From contig JAQBQQ010000023.1 of the NCBI GenBank assembly GCA_028286915.1, positions 8,005 to 72,004 on the forward strand: DNA of 64,000 nucleotides, given 5' to 3'. Both the position numbers and the translations under genes were made by a program. The notes below the pieces were generated by a model. That model was not told the origin of the DNA. It saw nothing but the letters and a program-made list of their open reading frames with translations, and did not search any database. The first letter of the stretch is position 1. Each line of letters opens with the position of its first letter. The stretch is from Candidatus Peribacteria bacterium. Its GTDB lineage: Bacteria; Patescibacteriota; Gracilibacteria; Peribacterales; Peribacteraceae. This document shows, piece after piece, positions 12,081 to 62,678 of the stretch.

Positions 12081-13151
12081 CTAAAATCCCCGTTTCCATT
12101 TTCGCACTTTTTCTATTGTCCGGGTGACGTAATACTTGGGCGAGAGGGGAATGTCCATACAGTGAACCAGTGTGAGCAGCTTACCGCCGAAGCCGGTTTT
12201 AAAAAGTGTCACACCGCTGAAAGGATGATTTTTCTGGGTGATTTCGCCGGTGTCATTCATAGGGGCAATGCCCCAGAAATTATAAATGCCGTCGCCACGT
12301 TTGAGGGCATCGCGGATGGCTGTCCATTGCAGAAGGTAACTTGATGGTACCTTGCGGTGCGCGAAGGTGCTGGCGCCGTGATGATAGCTGGTTTCGCCGC
12401 CTGCATGCATATGAATGGAGGCCGATATAACTTCATTCCGGTAGTGCGCCAGATAGAGCGTGCACTCTTTGCGGGGAGCAAAATGCGCTACCTGTGCGCG
12501 AAAGAAGGCATTGGAATACGGTGTGAATTTATGTCGTTGGCGTGTCTCGTCGTGCAGCGTGAGGAAGTATTGCAAGTCACCAACCGGGTCACTGGATGCC
12601 GTTACTGTGACGCCGTCTTTTTCCGCACGGCGGATAAGGTTTCGCGCGGTGGAGCGCATGTGCTTTAGTAGATCTTCTTCGCTTCGCATGGCAGAGTGGA
12701 TATTTTTGTCTCCGGTTGTCCACGGATCCGTTTCTTTAAGTGGTATGTACCACAGGTGCTCGGCTAACAAATGCAGCGGGGCCGGTTTTGCCCCGACACC
12801 TTGCAGTGTTGGTTCCAGTGCTACCGGCCAGTGCGGGCTCAGGCGAATGAAGCTGCAACGGTGTTCGTGCGCGGTCTGCTTTATGGCTTCCAGCAGTTCT
12901 GGCAACACGGACGGATCGGTAATTACCGGTCCGTATGGTACCGACAAATGGCGGCCGCGGCGGGCGGGGACAATAAGCCCCATGCATATGCCTCGCACCT
13001 CGTCTCCGTCTTTTATAATCCATCGTACAGGTGTCTGATGCAGTTCCGCGTATACCTCACCCATGGTCCAGCTTTGCAGAAATGGCGAAAATTGCCGGGC
13101 AACCAGGAAATTGTCCCATTCGGCCTGGTTTGTGGCGAGCGCAATGGTCAT
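12081..13151 (-). CDS. FemAB-family peptidoglycan aminoacyl-transferase
   Basis: 356 aa. The size and the pattern (FLQSW.WGEV..., ...YHHGAS..., YNFWGI) fit lipid II:aminoacyl-tRNA transferases of the FemABX family. Confidence 0.75.
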   Translation of the reverse strand: MTIALATNQAEWDNFLVARQFSPFLQSWTMGEVYAELHQTPVRWIIKDGDEVRGICMGLIVPARRGRHLSVPYGPVITDPSVLPELLEAIKQTAHEHRCSFIRLSPHWPVALEPTLQGVGAKPAPLHLLAEHLWYIPLKETDPWTTGDKNIHSAMRSEEDLLKHMRSTARNLIRRAEKDGVTVTASSDPVGDLQYFLTLHDETRQRHKFTPYSNAFFRAQVAHFAPRKECTLYLAHYRNEVISASIHMHAGGETSYHHGASTFAHRKVPSSYLLQWTAIRDALKRGDGIYNFWGIAPMNDTGEITQKNHPFSGVTLFKTGFGGKLLTLVHCMDIPLSPKYYVTRTIEKVRKWKRGF

Positions 13152-18807: not shown

Positions 18808-18883
18808 TGGTGCCACGAGCCGGTTTTGAACCGGCGACCCCGGGCTTATGAGTCCCGTGCTCTACCAACTGAGCTATCGTGGC
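18808..18883 (-). tRNA. tRNA-Met or tRNA-Ile2 (anticodon CAT), CCA encoded
   Basis: The reverse complement folds as a cloverleaf: gccacga/tcgtggc acceptor, gctc/gagc D stem, anticodon loop ctCATaa, T arm gccgg-ttcaaaa-ccggc. G1:C72 argues against an initiator. There is an A31/G39 mismatch. Confidence 0.85.
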
Positions 18884-18903: not shown

Positions 18904-18963
18904 TTACCAACTGCTTGTTCGCCGTAGTCCGCCGGGGCGGACGAAGGTGGAAGCTATCGTGGC
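18904..18963 (-). pseudogene. 5' fragment of the tRNA-Met gene interrupted by a 39-nt hairpin insert
   Basis: Minus strand reads gccacgatagct-[39 nt]-cagttggta. This equals the first 21 nt of the adjacent tRNA split by an insert that contains the palindrome gtccgccggggcggac. Confidence 0.6.
18920..18951. repeat. GC hairpin element copy 1 (GTAG + palindrome)
   Basis: cgccGTAGtccgccggggcggacgaaggtgga. 7-bp palindrome arms. Confidence 0.7.
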
Positions 18964-19007: not shown

Positions 19008-19039
19008 CGCCGAAGTCAGCCGCGGCTGACGCAGGTGGA
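19008..19039. repeat. GC hairpin element copy 2
   Basis: cgccgaagtcagccgcggctgacgcaggtgga. Same flanks as copy 1. The stem differs by one compensated pair (C:G to A:T). Confidence 0.7.
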
Positions 19040-28163: not shown

Positions 28164-28297
28164 ATGGGATACTTCCATAAAGTCTTACCTAAACGCTCTA
28201 TCTGCGAGCGGAGTTTATCCTGAGCCGGGCCGAAGGGCCATCCCGGCACGGGAGATTCTCATAAAGTATTACCCAAATGTTCTATTTACGAGCGGAG
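28153..28297. repeat. 61-nt direct repeat x2 (period 84 nt) covering the tRNA-Leu 5' end and upstream region
   Basis: 28153-28213 and 28237-28297 match at 50 of 61 positions. Each copy starts (minus sense) with an upstream block and ends with gccgggatggc, the first 11 nt of tRNA-Leu. Confidence 0.85.
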
Positions 28298-49943: not shown

Positions 49944-51179
49944 ATGCCAAAAGAACGCGTTCTCGCCAGTCTTGATATAGGAAGTTCTAAAATTCGGACC
50001 GTTATTGCTGTCGTTGACGGTGAAAAACAGGTGGAGCGTGTTCCAAGCGTTATTGGTGTCGGCGTATCGCCGTCACTGGGTATGCGCAAGGGGCATGTAA
50101 TTGATGTTGAAGAGCTCATCCATAATATCATCTCTTCCCTGGAAGACGCCGAGCGGATGGCTGGCGTTCCGGTGAACCATGTATTCGTGGGTATGAGCGG
50201 TTCGCATATTGAGTCATTTGACAGCCGCGGCGTCATTGCCATTTCCGGTTCGGAGATTTCCATTGAGGATATTATGCGCGTTTTGGAGGCGGCTCAGGCT
50301 GTGAGTATTCCGCAGAATCGTCGCATTTTGCATATTGAACCAAAATCATATGCTGTAGACGAACAGCGTGGTATCAAAAACCCGACCGGCATGACCGGTA
50401 TTCGTCTGGAAGTGGAGGCGCACATTGTGACCGGTCACATTCAGCATGTGAAGAATATAGAGAAGTGCATAGATCAGGCCGGCGTGGATATAGATGCGCT
50501 GGTGCCTGCCACTATTGCCGCACCGGAAGCAACGCTTACCAAGCGTCAGAAAGAATTGGGCGTGGTGTGTATAGATATTGGTGCCGGTTGTACGGGTATT
50601 ACGGTGTTTGAAGAGGGAACTATTTTGCACTCGGTCAATCTGCCAATCGGTGGCGAGAGCGTGACATCGGATATCGCTATCGGGCTCAGGACTTCTATAG
50701 ATACGGCGGAGAAGATTAAGATTGAGTACGGTTCCGTACTGCCTACCGAAATGAATGAACGTGACATGATTGATCTGTCATCGGTAAGCAAAGTGGATAC
50801 GCAGACCATCAGCCGTCGCTACATGGCGGAAATTATGCAGGCCCGTTACTACGAAATTTTCTCGCTGGCCAAAGCGGAGCTTACGCGCTTGGGCAGAGCA
50901 GGAATGTTGCCTGCAGGAGCGGTGCTTACGGGTGCTGCCGTCAAGGCGCCCGGTGTTATCGATTTAGCCCGTGATGTTCTTGGGCTGCCGGTCCAGATGG
51001 GCTTTCCGGTGGATATTGGCGGTGTCATAGAAAAGGTGGACGACCCGGCATATGCCACGGCGCTTGGAACACTTATCTGGGGTATGCGTGATGATGAGAA
51101 CGCTGTTCGCGGCAGTTCTTTCCAGATGAAGCGTGCTGTGAAACAGGTAAGTTCCTGGCTTAAAAGTTTATTCCCTTAG
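49944..51179 (+). CDS. ftsA: cell division protein FtsA
   Basis: 411 aa. Actin-like ATPase motifs LDIGSSKIR and CIDIGAGCTGI. Confidence 0.95.
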   Translation: MPKERVLASLDIGSSKIRTVIAVVDGEKQVERVPSVIGVGVSPSLGMRKGHVIDVEELIHNIISSLEDAERMAGVPVNHVFVGMSGSHIESFDSRGVIAISGSEISIEDIMRVLEAAQAVSIPQNRRILHIEPKSYAVDEQRGIKNPTGMTGIRLEVEAHIVTGHIQHVKNIEKCIDQAGVDIDALVPATIAAPEATLTKRQKELGVVCIDIGAGCTGITVFEEGTILHSVNLPIGGESVTSDIAIGLRTSIDTAEKIKIEYGSVLPTEMNERDMIDLSSVSKVDTQTISRRYMAEIMQARYYEIFSLAKAELTRLGRAGMLPAGAVLTGAAVKAPGVIDLARDVLGLPVQMGFPVDIGGVIEKVDDPAYATALGTLIWGMRDDENAVRGSSFQMKRAVKQVSSWLKSLFP

Positions 51180-51244
51180 GCGTTTTTCCGCCCTGGCGGA
51201 TAACTCCACACTATATCTTTCCCACTGATTTTCTCCCCCCTCCC

Positions 51245-59069: not shown

Positions 59070-59268
59070 ATCATTAGATTATAGCAGAAAATGATGATTT
59101 TTATAAGGTCGTGGGAGTTGCAAATATATAAAAATGTTATTTTATATATTTAATAAACTGGGGATCGCTTTCAAAACTGTCTGATGGCCTGCCATCCGTA
59201 GCTCTATCCTGTTAAAAAATAATCACATAACACAAAAATACATGTGAAATAACCCAAAGAGCGAAGAA

Positions 59269-59376
59269 TGGTGGGTAATACTGGATTCGAACCAGTGGCC
59301 TCCATCCGCCGCGGCGGATCAATGTGGCGCTCTAAACCCAAAGGGTCCCCTTCGGGGCAAACTAAGCTAATTACCC
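59269..59376 (-). ncRNA. tRNA-Val-derived tRNA-like element A (no anticodon loop), CCA encoded
   Basis: Acceptor stem, T arm, A73 and CCA are identical to tRNA-Val. The D loop is enlarged by ~22 nt. The anticodon arm is replaced by the 16-nt palindrome atccgccgcggcggat (59304-59319). It could equally be a pseudogene. Confidence 0.5.
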
Positions 59377-59415
59377 GGCGATGTAAATAATTGATAATTC
59401 CGATCTTATCTTAAT

Positions 59416-59480
59416 GGTAATACTGGATTCGAACCAGTGATCAGCCGTGGCTGACGGATCAATGTGGCGCTTTCTGAGCT
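59416..59480 (-). pseudogene. tRNA-like element B (3' part only), fused to the end of the GIY-YIG ORF
   Basis: Shares ggtaatactggattcgaaccagtg and atcaatgtggcgc with the other copies. Carries the palindrome tcagccgtggctga (59441-59454). Its 5' part is replaced by the ORF. Confidence 0.55.
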
Positions 59481-59713
59481 GTATTTCGAATAAATTCACG
59501 ACCTGCACCTGTCTTAAAGAATTTTTCTCGTATCATTGCTTCTCCTCGAGTTGAATAAACTTCTTTGTAGATTAATTTCCATGGTCCTCTAGTTTTTGTA
59601 TACGTTGATTTATTGTCCGGGCTATTGTGTTCTTCAATTCGTTTCTTTAAATCCTGTGTCTGACCTTTATATAAAACACCTTCGTTATTTTGAAGGATAT
59701 AGACGTAGTACAT
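59459..59713 (-). CDS. GIY-YIG nuclease-domain protein (YhbQ/UPF0213-like)
   Basis: ORF 59459..59770 with the start at MYYVYILQNNEGVLYKGQTQDLKKRIEEHN (GIY-YIG core). The start lies 12 nt after the tRNA-Val CCA. The last 6 codons overlap element B. Confidence 0.75.
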   Translation of the reverse strand: MYYVYILQNNEGVLYKGQTQDLKKRIEEHNSPDNKSTYTKTRGPWKLIYKEVYSTRGEAMIREKFFKTGAGREFIRNTAQKAPH

Positions 59714-59725
59714 GTTATAAAAAGA

Positions 59726-59802
59726 TGGTGGGTAATACTGGATTCGAACCAGTGACCTCCACAATGTCAATGTGGCGCTCTAACCAACTGAGCTAATTAC
59801 CC
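59726..59802 (-). tRNA. tRNA-Val (anticodon GAC), CCA encoded
   Basis: Cloverleaf gggtaat/attaccc, D arm gctc-agttggtta-gagc, anticodon arm ccaca-ttGACat-tgtgg, T arm actgg-ttcgaat-ccagt. Confidence 0.9.
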
Positions 59803-59840
59803 GGAGATGTAAATAATTGATAATTCCGATCTTATCCTAA

Positions 59841-59929
59841 TGGTAATACTGGATTCGAACCAGTGATCAGCCGCGGCTGACGGATCAATGTGGCGCTTTC
59901 CTCTTCGGGGCAAACTGAGCTAATTACCC
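59841..59929 (-). ncRNA. tRNA-like element D (type 2, no CCA, no anticodon loop)
   Basis: 5' acceptor and D-stem block and T arm match tRNA-Val. Carries the D-loop insert cctcttcgggg and the palindrome tcagccgcggctga (59867-59880). It could equally be a pseudogene. Confidence 0.45.
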
Positions 59930-60035
59930 GATTATAGTATAGGACTGATGCACAACTTCAGTCGGCCTAGACTAGCAAGTGTTGCAATCTGTCACAAGCC
60001 AGCTTTGTTCATTTGTTAGGCATGAGCATAGGCAG

Positions 60036-60068
60036 GAAAAAGTCGACCTTCCCACTGGGGGAAGGTCG
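60036..60068 (-). terminator. rho-independent terminator
   Basis: 10-bp stem cgaccttccc/gggaaggtcg, 5-nt loop. An A-run on the plus strand gives a T-run after the hairpin on the minus strand. Confidence 0.8.
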
Positions 60069-60080
60069 GGAGGATGCAGT

Positions 60081-60422
60081 TTAGTTGGCGAAGTAGTACT
60101 CCACCCACACTGCATCGGGCGTGTCTGATGGCGCCAGGGTGCCGTCCGTTTTTTTGCCCCGGACTTCCCATAGAAAGATGTTGCCTACTCGCTGGAACGG
60201 GTGCGAGTTGCCGTCCCATCTTTTCATTTCGGGAGGGCGAGAGCATTTGAGTGGATGCAGGATCCATGCAAATGTCGTCAGCCTTGCAGCTGACAGGAGT
60301 GCGTCCTCGGCTTCCTTGTTCAGCAGGCCAAGCCGGACGAGCTTGGCGATTTGTTCATGTGGTGCAAGCCTCTGGGAACCCTGGATGTTCACCCGCACCG
60401 CATCGCCGGTTAGGTCGGACAT
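60081..60422 (-). CDS. hypothetical protein, high-GC3 single-gene cassette
   Basis: 113 aa. AGGAG lies 9 nt upstream of the ATG. Codon use is visibly G/C-rich. It has its own terminator. No family recognised. Confidence 0.55.
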   Translation of the reverse strand: MSDLTGDAVRVNIQGSQRLAPHEQIAKLVRLGLLNKEAEDALLSAARLTTFAWILHPLKCSRPPEMKRWDGNSHPFQRVGNIFLWEVRGKKTDGTLAPSDTPDAVWVEYYFAN

Positions 60423-60598: not shown

Positions 60599-61771
60599 CT
60601 ATAAAGCCTGGGAAGCAGGCTTGTCGACGGGAACCAGGGCATGGATTCTTTCTTTTGTTGCCTCTATTTGTTCCACGGTATCCATCGGCGTTATGCTCAC
60701 GTTCATAGTCCGCGATTCACCGGCAGCCAGAACGGGTACCAATCCTTCTTTTCTTTGCTTGCTTCTGTTTGATGCGAAGCTTGTACCCGGCTCCAGCCCG
60801 GTTACGTAGCCGTCCTCCGGTGCATCAGTATTTTTCCAGAGCGTAAAGCAGGGGAGTTCGTTAATGGAAAAATCCATGCTTACAGCTTGTTTGGCATGTT
60901 CATTTGCGAGCATTACTGCTGTTTTTCCATTGGCATCTGCATGAAGATGAATATTATACACTTGTTCGATAAAGCCGGGAGTAGGCGGTTCAAAGCCGGT
61001 CATTGTGTGCATTCCTTCGGCTGCGCGCGAGTTGAAGGGATCGGCCTTTTTAATGGCGGCAATAAATTTTGTATTTTCTGAAAGCAGGGGATCGCCAAAA
61101 TTACAGTGGTATAGCATCTGCATTTCCTGCGGCTGGGATGATTTGTTGGTGACGGTATCCTGAATAGTAAACGTATGGGTTCCCAGTTCGGTATGAATTT
61201 CTGCCTGCAGATCGAGTTTTGGGCCGTGAAATACTCGTTCTTCCACGAGTCCGGCAATTACCAGAAAAATCTGACCGCGCGTGTCGCGCTCAATGCGGAG
61301 CATGGTATTTTTCCCGGGGATGTTTGCCACCTTTCCATGAAGAGTGAGCTGCATCTGTTCCTTTTTCCCGGTGTTATCAATATATTCATCCATTCCCGGG
61401 TGGCCGCTCCACTCCAGCCCGCAGCGGCACATCCATTCGGAAAAACCTTCCAGCCAGCCAAGACCGCCACGGCTTTCCAGGTTTATATATGCCGGGTTCA
61501 CCACCTCTTTAATGGGTGATTTCCATGCCAGTTCCACACCATTATAACTGGCTGAGATGATTCCGAAGCCGCGGGTAGGGGACACGGTTATACGTAACGG
61601 CCCGTTTATAAGATCAAAACAAATGACGCCTTCCTGCCTGCCGCCGCATAGCGTCCGTTTGGTAACAGACCAGTTGGCATTATCCGGCAGAACAGATCTG
61701 CCTTCCAGTGTGTGATCTTTTTTTAGGAAATCACCGTCTTCCAGAGAAATGGTATGAAGTACTTCACGCAT
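60599..61771 (-). CDS. aldose 1-epimerase-like (DUF4432-type) protein
   Basis: ORF 60599..61789. Galactose-mutarotase-like beta-sandwich pattern (LTLHGKV..., YHCNFG). Start at MREVLH gives an 8-nt overlap with the kinase gene. Confidence 0.6.
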   Translation of the reverse strand: MREVLHTISLEDGDFLKKDHTLEGRSVLPDNANWSVTKRTLCGGRQEGVICFDLINGPLRITVSPTRGFGIISASYNGVELAWKSPIKEVVNPAYINLESRGGLGWLEGFSEWMCRCGLEWSGHPGMDEYIDNTGKKEQMQLTLHGKVANIPGKNTMLRIERDTRGQIFLVIAGLVEERVFHGPKLDLQAEIHTELGTHTFTIQDTVTNKSSQPQEMQMLYHCNFGDPLLSENTKFIAAIKKADPFNSRAAEGMHTMTGFEPPTPGFIEQVYNIHLHADANGKTAVMLANEHAKQAVSMDFSINELPCFTLWKNTDAPEDGYVTGLEPGTSFASNRSKQRKEGLVPVLAAGESRTMNVSITPMDTVEQIEATKERIHALVPVDKPASQAL

Positions 61772-62678
61772 GGGCCAGGGCGGGAACAATGCAGGATTCA
61801 GGCTTCGTGTAGGTGGCGGGAGACGGCATGGCGCCGGATTGTGTGGCTACCCATGCGCCACGCCGGCTGGCTTCTTCCGCAATTTCTTCCAGCGGGCTGC
61901 CTGCCAGATAATAATGCACAAAGGCCGCGCAAAAAGCGTCACCGGCGCCGACCGTATCGGCCACTTCCACGGCGTAGCCCTGGTGTTCATACACGCGATT
62001 GTGAGTGACAAATAAGCTGCCTTCCTCGCCTTTGGTGGTACAGACGGTTTCTACCGGGTACTTTTCCAGAATTGCACGGGCAAACCCTACTTCGGAATTG
62101 GTGCCAAGTGACAGTAATTGTGCAATAACAGGTAATTCCTGATGGTTAAGTTTAAGAAGATTGCAGGAGTGAAGCAGGCGGTCCAGCAGTTCCGCGCTGT
62201 AGAATGTTCCGCGCAGATTCACATCAAATACTTTTAATGCGTTTGCCGGCAGGAGCGATAAAAACTCTCCCACTGCTTTGGAAGAAACGCTGTTGCGTTG
62301 GGCCAGTGTGCCAAAGCATATGGCATCGGTCTTGGCGGCCAGTATTTTCCACTGCTCCGTGCATTCCATATAATCCCAGGCTACATCGCTGGCGAATTCA
62401 TACTGTGCCTGTTTTTTTTCATCCAATACAATACTGACTGAGCCAGTAGGGTGTACGGCATCCCGCTGTATGTAGCCGCTGTCCAAGCCGTGATCAGCGA
62501 TAATCTGCAATGCCTCGTCGCCGAGTGCATCGGTGCCTATTCGGCTGGCGACTACTGCGTTATTTCCCAGCAGCCCGCAGTGGTAGGCAAAGTTTGCCGG
62601 TGCGCCGCCCATTTTTTTTCCTTCCGGAAGCAGGTCCCAGAGTAATTCACCAAGACCGACTATAGTATGTGTGCTCAT
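61764..62678 (-). CDS. PfkB-family carbohydrate kinase
   Basis: 304 aa. N-terminal GELLWD...GGAPANFA and the C-terminal DTVGAGDAF motif. Confidence 0.9.
   Translation of the reverse strand: MSTHTIVGLGELLWDLLPEGKKMGGAPANFAYHCGLLGNNAVVASRIGTDALGDEALQIIADHGLDSGYIQRDAVHPTGSVSIVLDEKKQAQYEFASDVAWDYMECTEQWKILAAKTDAICFGTLAQRNSVSSKAVGEFLSLLPANALKVFDVNLRGTFYSAELLDRLLHSCNLLKLNHQELPVIAQLLSLGTNSEVGFARAILEKYPVETVCTTKGEEGSLFVTHNRVYEHQGYAVEVADTVGAGDAFCAAFVHYYLAGSPLEEIAEEASRRGAWVATQSGAMPSPATYTKPESCIVPALAHA

Follow-up and report, generated by a model that had tools for sequence, protein, structure and literature searches.

A small stand-alone GIY-YIG nuclease gene fused to a palindrome-marked tRNA-Val copy in a Candidatus Peribacteria genome, and its recurrence beside tRNA genes in at least ten bacterial phyla

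We analysed a stretch of 64,000 nt (the window) of contig JAQBQQ010000023.1 from a Candidatus Peribacteria bacterium, in which a tRNA-Val locus at 59269-59929 contains one intact tRNA gene, three altered copies of it and a gene for a stand-alone GIY-YIG nuclease. Read on the minus strand from 59929 to 59269, the locus consists of a pseudo-tRNA (copy D), a 39-nt spacer, the tRNA-Val(GAC) gene, 12 nt, the GIY-YIG open reading frame (ORF), a tRNA fragment (copy B) that overlaps the 3′ end of the ORF, a second spacer and another pseudo-tRNA (copy A); the coordinates are collected in Table 1. The intact tRNA gene had already been located in the initial annotation, which was made from the letters alone, and both ARAGORN and Rfam recovered it at the same position. 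It is the functional copy that is retained by the element described here.

The three other copies are interrupted by short palindromes. Copy D has a hairpin insert in its D loop, and its variable loop and 3′ anticodon stem have given way to TCAGCCGCGGCTGA. The D-loop mini-hairpin of D is homologous to the first hairpin of the double-hairpin insert found in the D loop of copy A (a 32-nt repeat between A and D, 94% identical). In copy A, TCCGCCGCGGCGGA stands for positions 36-40; when the inserts are excluded, this copy differs from tRNA-Val by 2 substitutions only (alignment A5). The 24-nt T-arm/acceptor block GGTAATACTGGATTCGAACCAGTG occurred four times at the locus, and CGGATCAATGTGGCGCT was common to A, B and D at 100%. 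A direct repeat of 115 nt (59360-59474 and 59786-59900, 97% identity, 426-nt spacing) was also found. With up to two mismatches allowed, TCAGCCGCGGCTGA gave 4 matches against 0.36 expected, and this excess together with the unambiguous long repeats ruled out chance. A search of 59100-60100 with Rfam at permissive E-values returned tRNA matches and noise only.

Most of what the initial annotation had described at the locus was borne out. The repeat analysis agreed with the fourfold 24-nt block, the block shared by A, B and D and the block shared by A and D; the sequence and the Rfam insertions agreed with the layout given for copy A (acceptor stem, A73, CCA, D-loop hairpins and 16-nt palindrome); TCAGCCGCGGCTGA and TCAGCCGTGGCTGA were located in D and B, both of which end without CCA, as had been said; and the proposed duplicated unit corresponds to the direct repeat above. 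The duplication of the spacer with 2 mismatches stood as well, but its length is 39 nt and not 38, so that the start of copy D moves by one base to 59842. The shared blocks form a mosaic, in which A and D have the D-loop hairpin in common, D and B have TCAGCC, and A and tRNA-Val have the 3′ anticodon stem and variable region. This mosaic indicates repeated exchange among the copies, and the exact order of events is not recoverable from it. As judged from the sequence, the present array probably represents two units with a period of 426 nt, of which the second is without its ORF and partly decayed; copies A, B and D are best read as by-products of recombination.

Table 1. Features of the tRNA-Val locus and of the tRNA-Met site in the window.
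Feature	Position	Strand	Remarks
Copy D, pseudo-tRNA-Val	59842-59929	-	tRNA positions 1-72, without CCA; local alignment to tRNA-Val, score 87.8
D-loop mini-hairpin of D	59900-59910	-	tRNA sense CCCC-GAA-GAGG, one mismatch
Palindrome TCAGCCGCGGCTGA in D	59867-59880		perfect, 14 nt
Spacer between D and tRNA-Val	59803-59841	-	39 nt; duplicate of 59377-59415, 2 mismatches
tRNA-Val(GAC), intact, encoded CCA	59726-59802	-	ARAGORN; Rfam RF00005, 75.4 bits
GIY-YIG nuclease gene, stand-alone, 84 aa, UPF0213/Slx1-like	59459-59713	-	Pfam PF01541, E=4.8e-17
Copy B, 3′ pseudo-tRNA-Val fragment, D-type	59416-59480	-	AGCTCAG (position ~9) to position 72; fused to ORF 3′ end
Palindrome TCAGCCGTGGCTGA in B	59441-59454		one central mismatch
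Second spacer copy	59377-59415	-	39 nt, within direct repeat
Copy A, full-length pseudo-tRNA-Val	59269-59376	-	7-bp acceptor stem, T arm, A73 and CCA kept
Double mini-hairpin in D loop of A	59337-59358	-	tRNA sense CCCC-GAA-GGGG, then CCC-TTT-GGG
Palindrome ATCCGCCGCGGCGGAT in A	59304-59319		perfect, 16 nt
5′ pseudo-fragment of tRNA-Met	18905-18963	-	positions 1-12, 38-nt insert with TCCGCCCCGGCGGA, positions 13-21
tRNA-Met, intact	18808-18883		21 nt downstream of pseudo-fragment
TCAGCCGCGGCTGA (same palindrome as in D)	19016-19029		in ~38-nt unit homologous to the insert of the tRNA-Met fragment

Two of the readings offered at first took the marked copies for working RNAs: A and D as expressed tRNA-like RNAs, for example substrates of a FemAB-type transferase, or as tRNAs with small spliceable inserts. 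Copy A, with its tRNA termini and T arm preserved, scored 41.3 bits against the Rfam tRNA model (gathering threshold 29), the model skipping a 28-nt D-loop and a 20-nt anticodon insertion, and it folded well into a cloverleaf-like structure (minimum free energy -43.4 kcal/mol, z=-2.6). A FemAB-family gene is indeed present at 12081-13151 on the minus strand (PF02388, E=4.5e-32), as had been noted. Such a function is nevertheless very improbable. Only 3 bp of the anticodon stem of copy A align and no canonical 7-nt loop is left, in line with the earlier description, and ARAGORN made no call, classing A, B and D alike as non-functional. Removal of the inserts rebuilt no anticodon arm in any of the three copies, the palindrome replacing positions 36-40 in A and 36-48 in B and D. 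Copies D and B have no CCA, copy D folded poorly (z=-0.5), and the marked copies found in other genomes are mostly truncated. Copy A is also without an anticodon, on which the identity of tRNA for valyl-tRNA synthetase is established to depend, and we know of no bacterial machinery for such mini-introns. The FemAB-family gene, which carries a GNAT domain in addition, lies 46 kb away, and no link between it and the tRNA-Val locus was found within the window. Both suggestions were thus given up. A short intron of the archaeal type (bulge-helix-bulge) was rejected as well, since removal of the inserts gives no canonical tRNA in A, B or D.

The GIY-YIG ORF is fused to copy B. It starts with ATG at 59713, 12 nt past the CCA of tRNA-Val, and its TGA ends at 59459; the terminal six codons (AQKAPH) and the TGA are tRNA-Val positions ~9-35 of copy B, the stop codon being U33-G34-A35 of the former anticodon loop. 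Both the distance to the CCA and this fusion had been recognised before. It had further been stated that the ORF replaced the 5′ part of copy B; the replacement is real but limited to tRNA positions 1 to ~8, since AGCTCAG of the D arm is still there.

The match of the 84-residue protein to PF01541 (62.5 bits, cut-off 22.6) covers residues 1-68. Among 22 homologues Y3, Y5, Y15, G17, R25, A59 and E63 were invariant, H29 was nearly so and the N-terminus MYYVY was conserved; the invariant residues fit a predicted GIY-YIG active site. In the AlphaFold2 model (pLDDT 82.8), strands at 2-8 and 14-19, a helix at 22-30, a strand at 46-53 and a helix at 56-66 form a β-β-α-β-α core. When solved structures were searched with phmmer, 1zg2 (E=4e-8) and 1ywl (2e-6) were obtained, that is, only the uncharacterised UPF0213 proteins BH0048 and EF2693, and Foldseek placed 1zg2 first and then Slx1 (7cq3; TMq 0.66, root-mean-square deviation 2.1 Å). 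Sequence and model together predict a single-domain, UPF0213/Slx1-like stand-alone GIY-YIG protein; a 2006 survey of the superfamily placed prokaryotic stand-alone proteins in the Slx1 cluster (PMC1564403). The catalytic domain leaves no room for a DNA-binding domain, and the modular plan that defines Seg and I-TevI (catalytic domain, linker, C-terminal DNA-binding domain) is absent. No model of the Seg/I-TevI type scored above threshold (TIGR01453, 18.6 bits against a cut-off of 56), no PADLOC defence model matched significantly (best E=0.0066 and E=0.0084), and the PHROG and NCBIfam searches assigned no specific family. Homologues were rare in phage and plasmid records. The nearest protein homologues in general were only 45-58% identical to the window ORF.

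To a large extent the same arrangement was seen in the closest relative, locus L018 from Peregrinibacteria, whose ORF was the best match among 80 ORFs (58% identity over all 84 residues). There, a tRNA-Val(GAC) lies 6 nt upstream of the ATG. The end of the ORF (…RAPH and stop) is read from AGAGCGCCACATTGA, and …APH with the stop corresponds to tRNA positions 21-35, which is the same ORF/tRNA junction as in the window. The TGA is followed by TCCGCCGCAGGCGGA-TGGAGGTC and then by a second hairpin in the T loop, and an additional 5′ pseudo-fragment is present upstream of the intact tRNA. In alignment A5, TCCGCCGCAGGCGGA sits where copy A has TCCGCCGCGGCGGA, and wherever the tRNA-Val genes of the two loci differ, each pseudo-copy matches its own neighbouring tRNA. 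The pseudo-copies thus appear to evolve in concert with the adjacent intact gene. Copy A may be the remnant of an ORF deletion through recombination between GCGCCACATTGA of an intact copy and the matching segment at the 3′ end of an ORF; such a deletion would yield a full-length tRNA with a solo palindrome.

To see how far this design extends, one genome per species was scanned with degenerate peptides, and at least 542 of the 600 stretches listed encode relatives. Eighty loci were kept, and the analysed set of 80 non-redundant loci consists of 79 of these and L001. The hosts belong to Bacteroidota, Ignavibacteriota/Chlorobiota, many lineages of Patescibacteria (candidate phyla radiation), Omnitrophota, Margulisiibacteriota, Planctomycetota, Verrucomicrobiota, Elusimicrobiota, Chloroflexota, Spirochaetota and bins labelled Gammaproteobacteria, and the same design occurs in at least 10 bacterial phyla. 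Cultured carriers include Zunongwangia pacifica, Mesonia oceanica, Namhaeicola litoreus, Luteirhabdus pelagi and Melioribacter roseus. A tRNA gene on the same strand, within 130 nt of the ORF or overlapping it, was present at 63 of the 80 loci (downstream at 42 and upstream at 21), while at none was there a tRNA on the opposite strand only; the linked tRNAs are of 18 amino-acid types. For 56 tRNA/ORF pairs, at about 50 loci, the ORF is flanked on its other side by the same tRNA again, whole or in part. An intact tRNA downstream goes with a second copy upstream of the ORF, as a 5′ fragment or at full length; an intact tRNA upstream, the case of the window, goes with one downstream, as a 3′ fragment or at full length. 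Twenty-two ORFs borrow their stop codon, using TAG or TAA at U8-A9-R10 or at positions 21-23 of the intact downstream tRNA, and with the tRNA upstream the end of the ORF lies in the tRNA fragment. The ORF appears to be without its own promoter, leader or stop codon, starting a few bases past one tRNA copy and reading into the next. In Bacteroidota-like contigs, the P0004 homologue is preceded by a duplicated promoter region and a marked tRNA-Asn copy, with TCCGCCTTTGGCGGA in the D arm and TCCGCCTAAGGCGGA where the anticodon loop would be, and followed by an intact tRNA-Asn.

An intact tRNA and a partial direct repeat that flank inserted DNA are also what integrase-mediated integration into tRNA genes leaves behind (attL/attR). 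We rejected this origin: the insert of ~0.3-0.45 kb has no integrase, and the displaced copy may be 5′, 3′ or full length and is interrupted by palindromes. As a separate observation, loci L001 and L002 (3380-6237) have an identical GIY-YIG/tRNA-Asn unit with different integrated elements directly downstream of the tRNA-Asn (HTH_17/DUF3987 genes in one, rve integrase/HigB in the other), so that this tRNA-Asn is also an active integrase attachment site.

The recurrence bears on the simplest account, that of plain tRNA pseudogenes which arose by local duplication and later received host palindromes like the repetitive extragenic palindromic (REP) sequences, with a GIY-YIG gene nearby by coincidence. 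It would suit the failure of A, B and D with ARAGORN, and the copy mosaic is consistent with local recombination. Yet an ORF, a tRNA duplicate and palindromes are found together again and again, in 80 loci from many phyla, and the palindromes are nearly confined to the ORF flanks, which makes this account hardly credible. What remains of the corresponding suggestion in the initial annotation is that A, B and D are tRNA copies that have been disabled. The palindromes, however, are no host REPs, because these cassettes recur in unrelated phyla and lie almost exclusively within ~110-170 nt of these ORFs.

The spare tRNA copies are interrupted by a few recurrent kinds of short GC-rich palindrome. 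These are 15-mers of the form NNNGCC-N3-GGCN′N′N′, mostly TCCGCC…GGCGGA (TCCGCC-N2-3-GGCGGA); 14-mers such as TCCGCCGCGGCGGA, the core of the copy A palindrome; abutting double hairpins of 30 nt, with a purine-rich loop first and a pyrimidine-rich loop second; and a perfect palindrome of 20 nt, CCTGCCTGCCGGCAGGCAGG. The 14-nt core of copy A is identical in L013 and L064 and near-identical in L018, at the same tRNA-Val position. Double hairpins with GAA, GGA or AAA and then TCT, TTA or TCC loops were found in L016, L028, L041, L046, L055, L056, L061 and L068, and the double hairpin in the D loop of A has the same order and loop types. The TCAGCC/GGCTGA stem of D and B also stands beside homologous ORFs in L041, L046, L055 and L056. 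One of three loops receives the insert, the D loop (in many cases at 21|22 to the base), the T loop (TTC|GAA) or the anticodon loop, and frequently no tRNA base has been lost.

The linkage of these hairpins to the ORF is strong. For CCGCC-N2-4-GGCGG, 28 of the 31 sites in 364 kb were within 110 nt of an ORF, and GCC-N3-GGC with three complementary outer pairs was found 36 times in ~31 kb of ORF flanks against 9 times in 284 kb of distal sequence. The outer pairs covary among Watson-Crick types while the GCC/GGC core is invariant, with 26 double-sided changes, a number that no shuffle reached; as the alignment used for covariation had been pre-selected for at least two of three complementary outer pairs, the flank-versus-distal count is the unbiased figure. 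A strand test on the stems (G·U against A·C mismatches) showed almost always perfect Watson-Crick pairing, with a few exceptions in both directions. Behind the intact tRNA-Lys of L066 (2755-3000) there are two further tRNA-Lys-like copies. In one of them TCCGC…GCGGA has taken the place of the D stem, and the retained D-loop sequence CAGTTGG forms the loop of the hairpin, a pattern more suggestive of an exchanged stem than of a simple insertion. A scan of metagenomes with the tRNA-Val/hairpin junction GCGCCACATTGATCCGYC gave 57 loci, all of them chance matches in GC-rich coding sequence where neither a tRNA nor a GIY-YIG gene is present.

Palindromes also occur without the nuclease gene. At the tRNA-Met site of the window a marked 5′ pseudo-fragment precedes the intact tRNA, a unit with TCAGCCGCGGCTGA lies ~60 nt farther upstream, and no GIY-YIG ORF is present. 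This site is either a decayed element or a case of palindromes acting in trans.

Several of these findings would suit a two-component element, in which the palindromes, in the form of extruded hairpins or cruciforms, are the cis substrates of the nuclease, an Slx1-like enzyme specific for structure and not for sequence. Cuts at the palindromes or at tRNA gene (tDNA) stem-loops would then drive excision, amplification or insertion of the cassettes, and the palindromes would be tiny mobile units that target tRNA loops, comparable with REP/RAYT, mitochondrial GC clusters and double-hairpin elements. The structural neighbours of the protein are Slx1-type structure-specific nucleases, and the protein consists of the catalytic domain only. 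The insertions are precise and loss-free at loop positions of 18 tRNA types, the stems covary around an invariant core, the double hairpins have a constant orientation with respect to the ORF, and the tRNA-Met site has palindromes without an ORF. Copies identical to the intact tRNA can already bear a palindrome (L032, L061, L026). Loci with hairpins of one class have more similar proteins, even where their tRNA types differ (75.7 against 73.2 bits, p=0.0025), but the effect is small and confounded with taxonomy. On the other side, the hairpins are usually on one side of the ORF, unlike the two ends of a transposon, and solo palindromes are equally derivable from ORF deletion between duplicated tRNA segments. 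We regard the two-component element as rather unlikely. REP/RAYT and IS200/IS605 elements themselves were rejected as candidates, given that the only ORF in the unit is the GIY-YIG gene, with no Y1 (HUH) transposase, and that the hairpins are mostly one-sided.

A broader form of this thought, tentative but with somewhat more in its favour, is that a bare, Slx1-like, structure-specific GIY-YIG nuclease and GC-palindrome cassettes act together as a mobile-element class that has not been described. The palindromes might then, just as tentatively, be its partners in cis, either sites of cleavage or immunity or mini-mobile units at tRNA loops. Through recognition of DNA shape, namely tDNA stem-loops and extruded palindromes, one protein of 80 residues could invade any tRNA gene in any phylum. 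Candidate roles for the palindromes include cleavage or binding sites of a structure-specific nuclease, a shield against cutting of the spare copy, which would otherwise be open to deletion by single-strand annealing, recombination barriers and RNA stabilisers. As a lead only, the class-I hairpin dyad C-NNN-G is presumably the motif preferred by the I-TevI catalytic domain.

Copy number and insertion side vary among related loci, and 17 loci have 2-5 ORFs in tandem. Some array copies are identical, which indicates local amplification, and others are only ~60% identical in DNA (L049, L016, L065, L070, L071), which indicates independent arrivals. Arrays of up to five GIY-YIG ORFs with a period of ~315-360 nt were noted at L073 (2143-3810) and also at L023, L049 and L058, and copies within arrays include frameshifted or stop-containing ORFs. 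In L040 and L052, at ~2790-2830, a tRNA-Leu fragment interrupted in the T loop is followed by the same 6-nt spacer, a second MYYVYV… ORF and then a masked stretch of N. At L008 (2440-2903), both copies that flank the ORF (GGGCGCATGGCTCAGTGGTAGAGCG…) come from a tRNA-Ile unlike the resident intact tRNA-Ile (GGGCCGTTGGTTCAGCGGTAGAACG…) 85 nt downstream, so that the ORF apparently travelled with its own tRNA copies. Between genomes the dN/dS ratio was 0.06-0.21, and copies of one array compared with each other gave about 1, a pattern that is expected if only working copies spread and redundant ones decay. Arrays, divergent co-resident ORFs, the foreign tRNA copy and the dN/dS between genomes all point to an invasive element, and the patchy, horizontal distribution with cycles of decay that marks homing genes is seen here.

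The strong purifying selection between genomes could also speak for a gene that benefits its host, with the GIY-YIG protein serving tRNA-gene biology, for example by resolving R-loops or secondary structures of tDNA that is highly transcribed. The gene would be co-transcribed with the tRNAs, the hairpin-bearing pseudo-tRNAs would act as untranslated-region stabilisers or processing signals, and the duplications would be incidental. Strict linkage to a tRNA on the same strand and at near-zero distance suggests co-transcription and tRNA-punctuated processing, the hairpins lie directly past the stop codon or in the 5′ leader, and copy A folds as a stable cloverleaf-like RNA. This domesticated role is nonetheless improbable, because the patchy distribution over tRNA types and phyla, the neutral decay of the arrays, the divergent ORFs within one tRNA cluster and the foreign tRNA copy that accompanies the ORF are hallmarks of selfish spread.

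Taken together, the data probably reflect a small selfish element resident in tRNA genes, present here as an array of two units in partial decay; its free-standing gene would be of the homing type, and its target would be restored by duplication. Its parts are a GIY-YIG gene of ~80 codons for the catalytic domain only, a duplicate of the invaded tRNA and GC palindromes in the loops of the spare copy; since the tRNA is duplicated, one intact copy keeps the host viable. The nuclease would break tRNA genes, its target being the conserved loop sequences or the stem-loop structure of the tDNA. Repair from an occupied allele would copy the ORF together with a tRNA segment, by the logic documented for fungal mitochondrial mORFs with a duplicated gene terminus (PMC3630166), so that the gene is restored intact and a fragment is displaced. 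Renewed cutting of the intact copy with unequal exchange or misaligned repair would give tandem arrays, and recombination between the duplicated tRNA segments would delete ORFs, leaving solo-palindrome copies such as A and D and fragments such as B. That the ORF has little or no leader past the preceding tRNA and runs into the 5′ end of the next one suggests expression that is tRNA-punctuated, near-leaderless and probably low. Of the readings given at first, a GIY-YIG homing event like that of T4 SegB came closest to the comparative data, but what these reveal is a recurrent cross-phylum element of fixed architecture and not a single event.

Several points weigh against such an element. Neither a cleavage activity nor a target has been established for any member of the family, and the lack of a DNA-binding domain means that site-specific homing in the manner of I-TevI or SegB is not obviously possible. 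The intact tRNA beside the ORF stays identical to the presumed target, hence self-immunity is not evident. No pair of empty and filled alleles was recovered, and no close relative of the window's organism was found in the databases searched. Homing alone leaves unexplained both the conservation of the palindromes across phyla and tRNA types and the marked tRNA fragments without an ORF, as at the tRNA-Met site. Finally, with homologues so rare in phages and plasmids, no vehicle of horizontal spread emerged.

The nearest known parallel in architecture is offered by the mORFs of fungal mitochondria, which carry a duplicated gene terminus in Allomyces macrogynus atp6 and in Glomus atp6, atp9, cox2 and nad3 (PMC3630166). 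In both systems a free-standing endonuclease ORF occupies a conserved and essential gene, a gene part that comes with it fuses to the resident part and keeps the gene functional while the native fragment is displaced beyond the ORF, the ORF is in phase with or reads into host-gene sequence, and spread takes place horizontally. The order functional hybrid gene, ORF, displaced fragment is found in the window (tRNA-Val, ORF and copy B) and at ~50 further loci. Unlike in mORFs, the host gene here is a bacterial chromosomal tRNA, the ORF is a bare catalytic domain of ~80 residues, either the 5′ or the 3′ fragment may be displaced, the displaced copy is palindrome-marked at its loops and tandem arrays are common.

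T4 SegB likewise is a GIY-YIG nuclease whose gene lies among tRNA genes. It recognises the TψC motif GGTTCRANTCC of tRNA genes with relaxed specificity, cutting many tRNA genes and those of its own genome less efficiently, and it drives co-inheritance of neighbouring tRNAs (PMC2330249). SegB differs in being a multi-domain phage protein with a 27-bp recognition site and no tRNA duplication, pseudo-tRNA or palindromes, whereas the window protein is much smaller, is nearest to UPF0213/Slx1 and not to Seg/I-TevI, and belongs to a family rare in phage records. With UPF0213 (YhbQ-YazA) and eukaryotic Slx1 it shares the fold, and these are its closest sequences and structures; Slx1, however, needs Slx4 and has a RING/PHD domain. 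The UPF0213/Slx1 literature that was searched, the 2006 survey included (PMC1564403), reports no linkage to tRNA genes, no duplication and no palindromes.

The hairpins call to mind, as a lead only, yeast mitochondrial GC clusters, Allomyces double-hairpin elements and bacterial REP/RAYT, which we take to be short GC-rich hairpin cassettes. Such cassettes insert precisely, recur in many copies and often adjoin endonuclease ORFs. In contrast to them, the hairpins here are 14-30 nt long and tied to tRNA loops and to one nuclease family across phyla, with no Y1 transposase. No description of a bacterial element of tRNA, GIY-YIG gene and palindrome was found in the full-text literature, which was searched with the palindrome sequences included and whose coverage leaves out most subscription journals. 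The conserved loop-targeted palindromes combined with a bare Slx1-like nuclease are an unexplained and potentially new part of the system.

If confirmed, this element of about 0.3-0.45 kb would rank with the smallest autonomous selfish elements of bacteria, and it would be an unusually promiscuous one, as it exploits the most conserved genes in biology. It would account for many partial or ‘intron-like’ tRNA predictions and for anonymous ‘GIY-YIG nuclease family protein’ annotations beside tRNAs, especially in Bacteroidota, Ignavibacteriota and the candidate phyla radiation. UPF0213, with structures since 2005 and no function, gains a testable biological role. Two puzzles are posed: how a nuclease of 80 residues without a DNA-binding domain finds tRNA genes, and how palindromes of 14-30 nt come to stand at exact D-, anticodon- and T-loop positions across phyla. 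Stop borrowing and near-leaderless placement suggest a tRNA-punctuated mode of gene expression that would be workable in any bacterium.

Some minor observations were made elsewhere in the window. Exact-sequence look-ups with the GIY-YIG protein and with its DUF4432 neighbour (aldose-epimerase-like; 60599-61789, minus strand) returned no recorded match. None of 5.8 billion proteins exceeded 55% identity to this neighbour, its best named matches being from metagenome-assembled genomes of Verrucomicrobiota and Planctomycetota, and consequently there is no orthologous locus for an empty-site comparison. An 11-nt match to the 5′ end of tRNA-Leu(CAA) (GCCGGGATGGC) at 28237-28247, ~75 nt upstream of that tRNA, is too short to be called a remnant. 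The hairpin TTCCGCCCTGGCGGAT at 51186-51201 is situated just past the stop of an ORF that ends at 51179 and before the next gene; its stem is of the type seen in the tRNA-linked cassettes, there is no tRNA homology nearby, and it may be an ordinary terminator-like stem.

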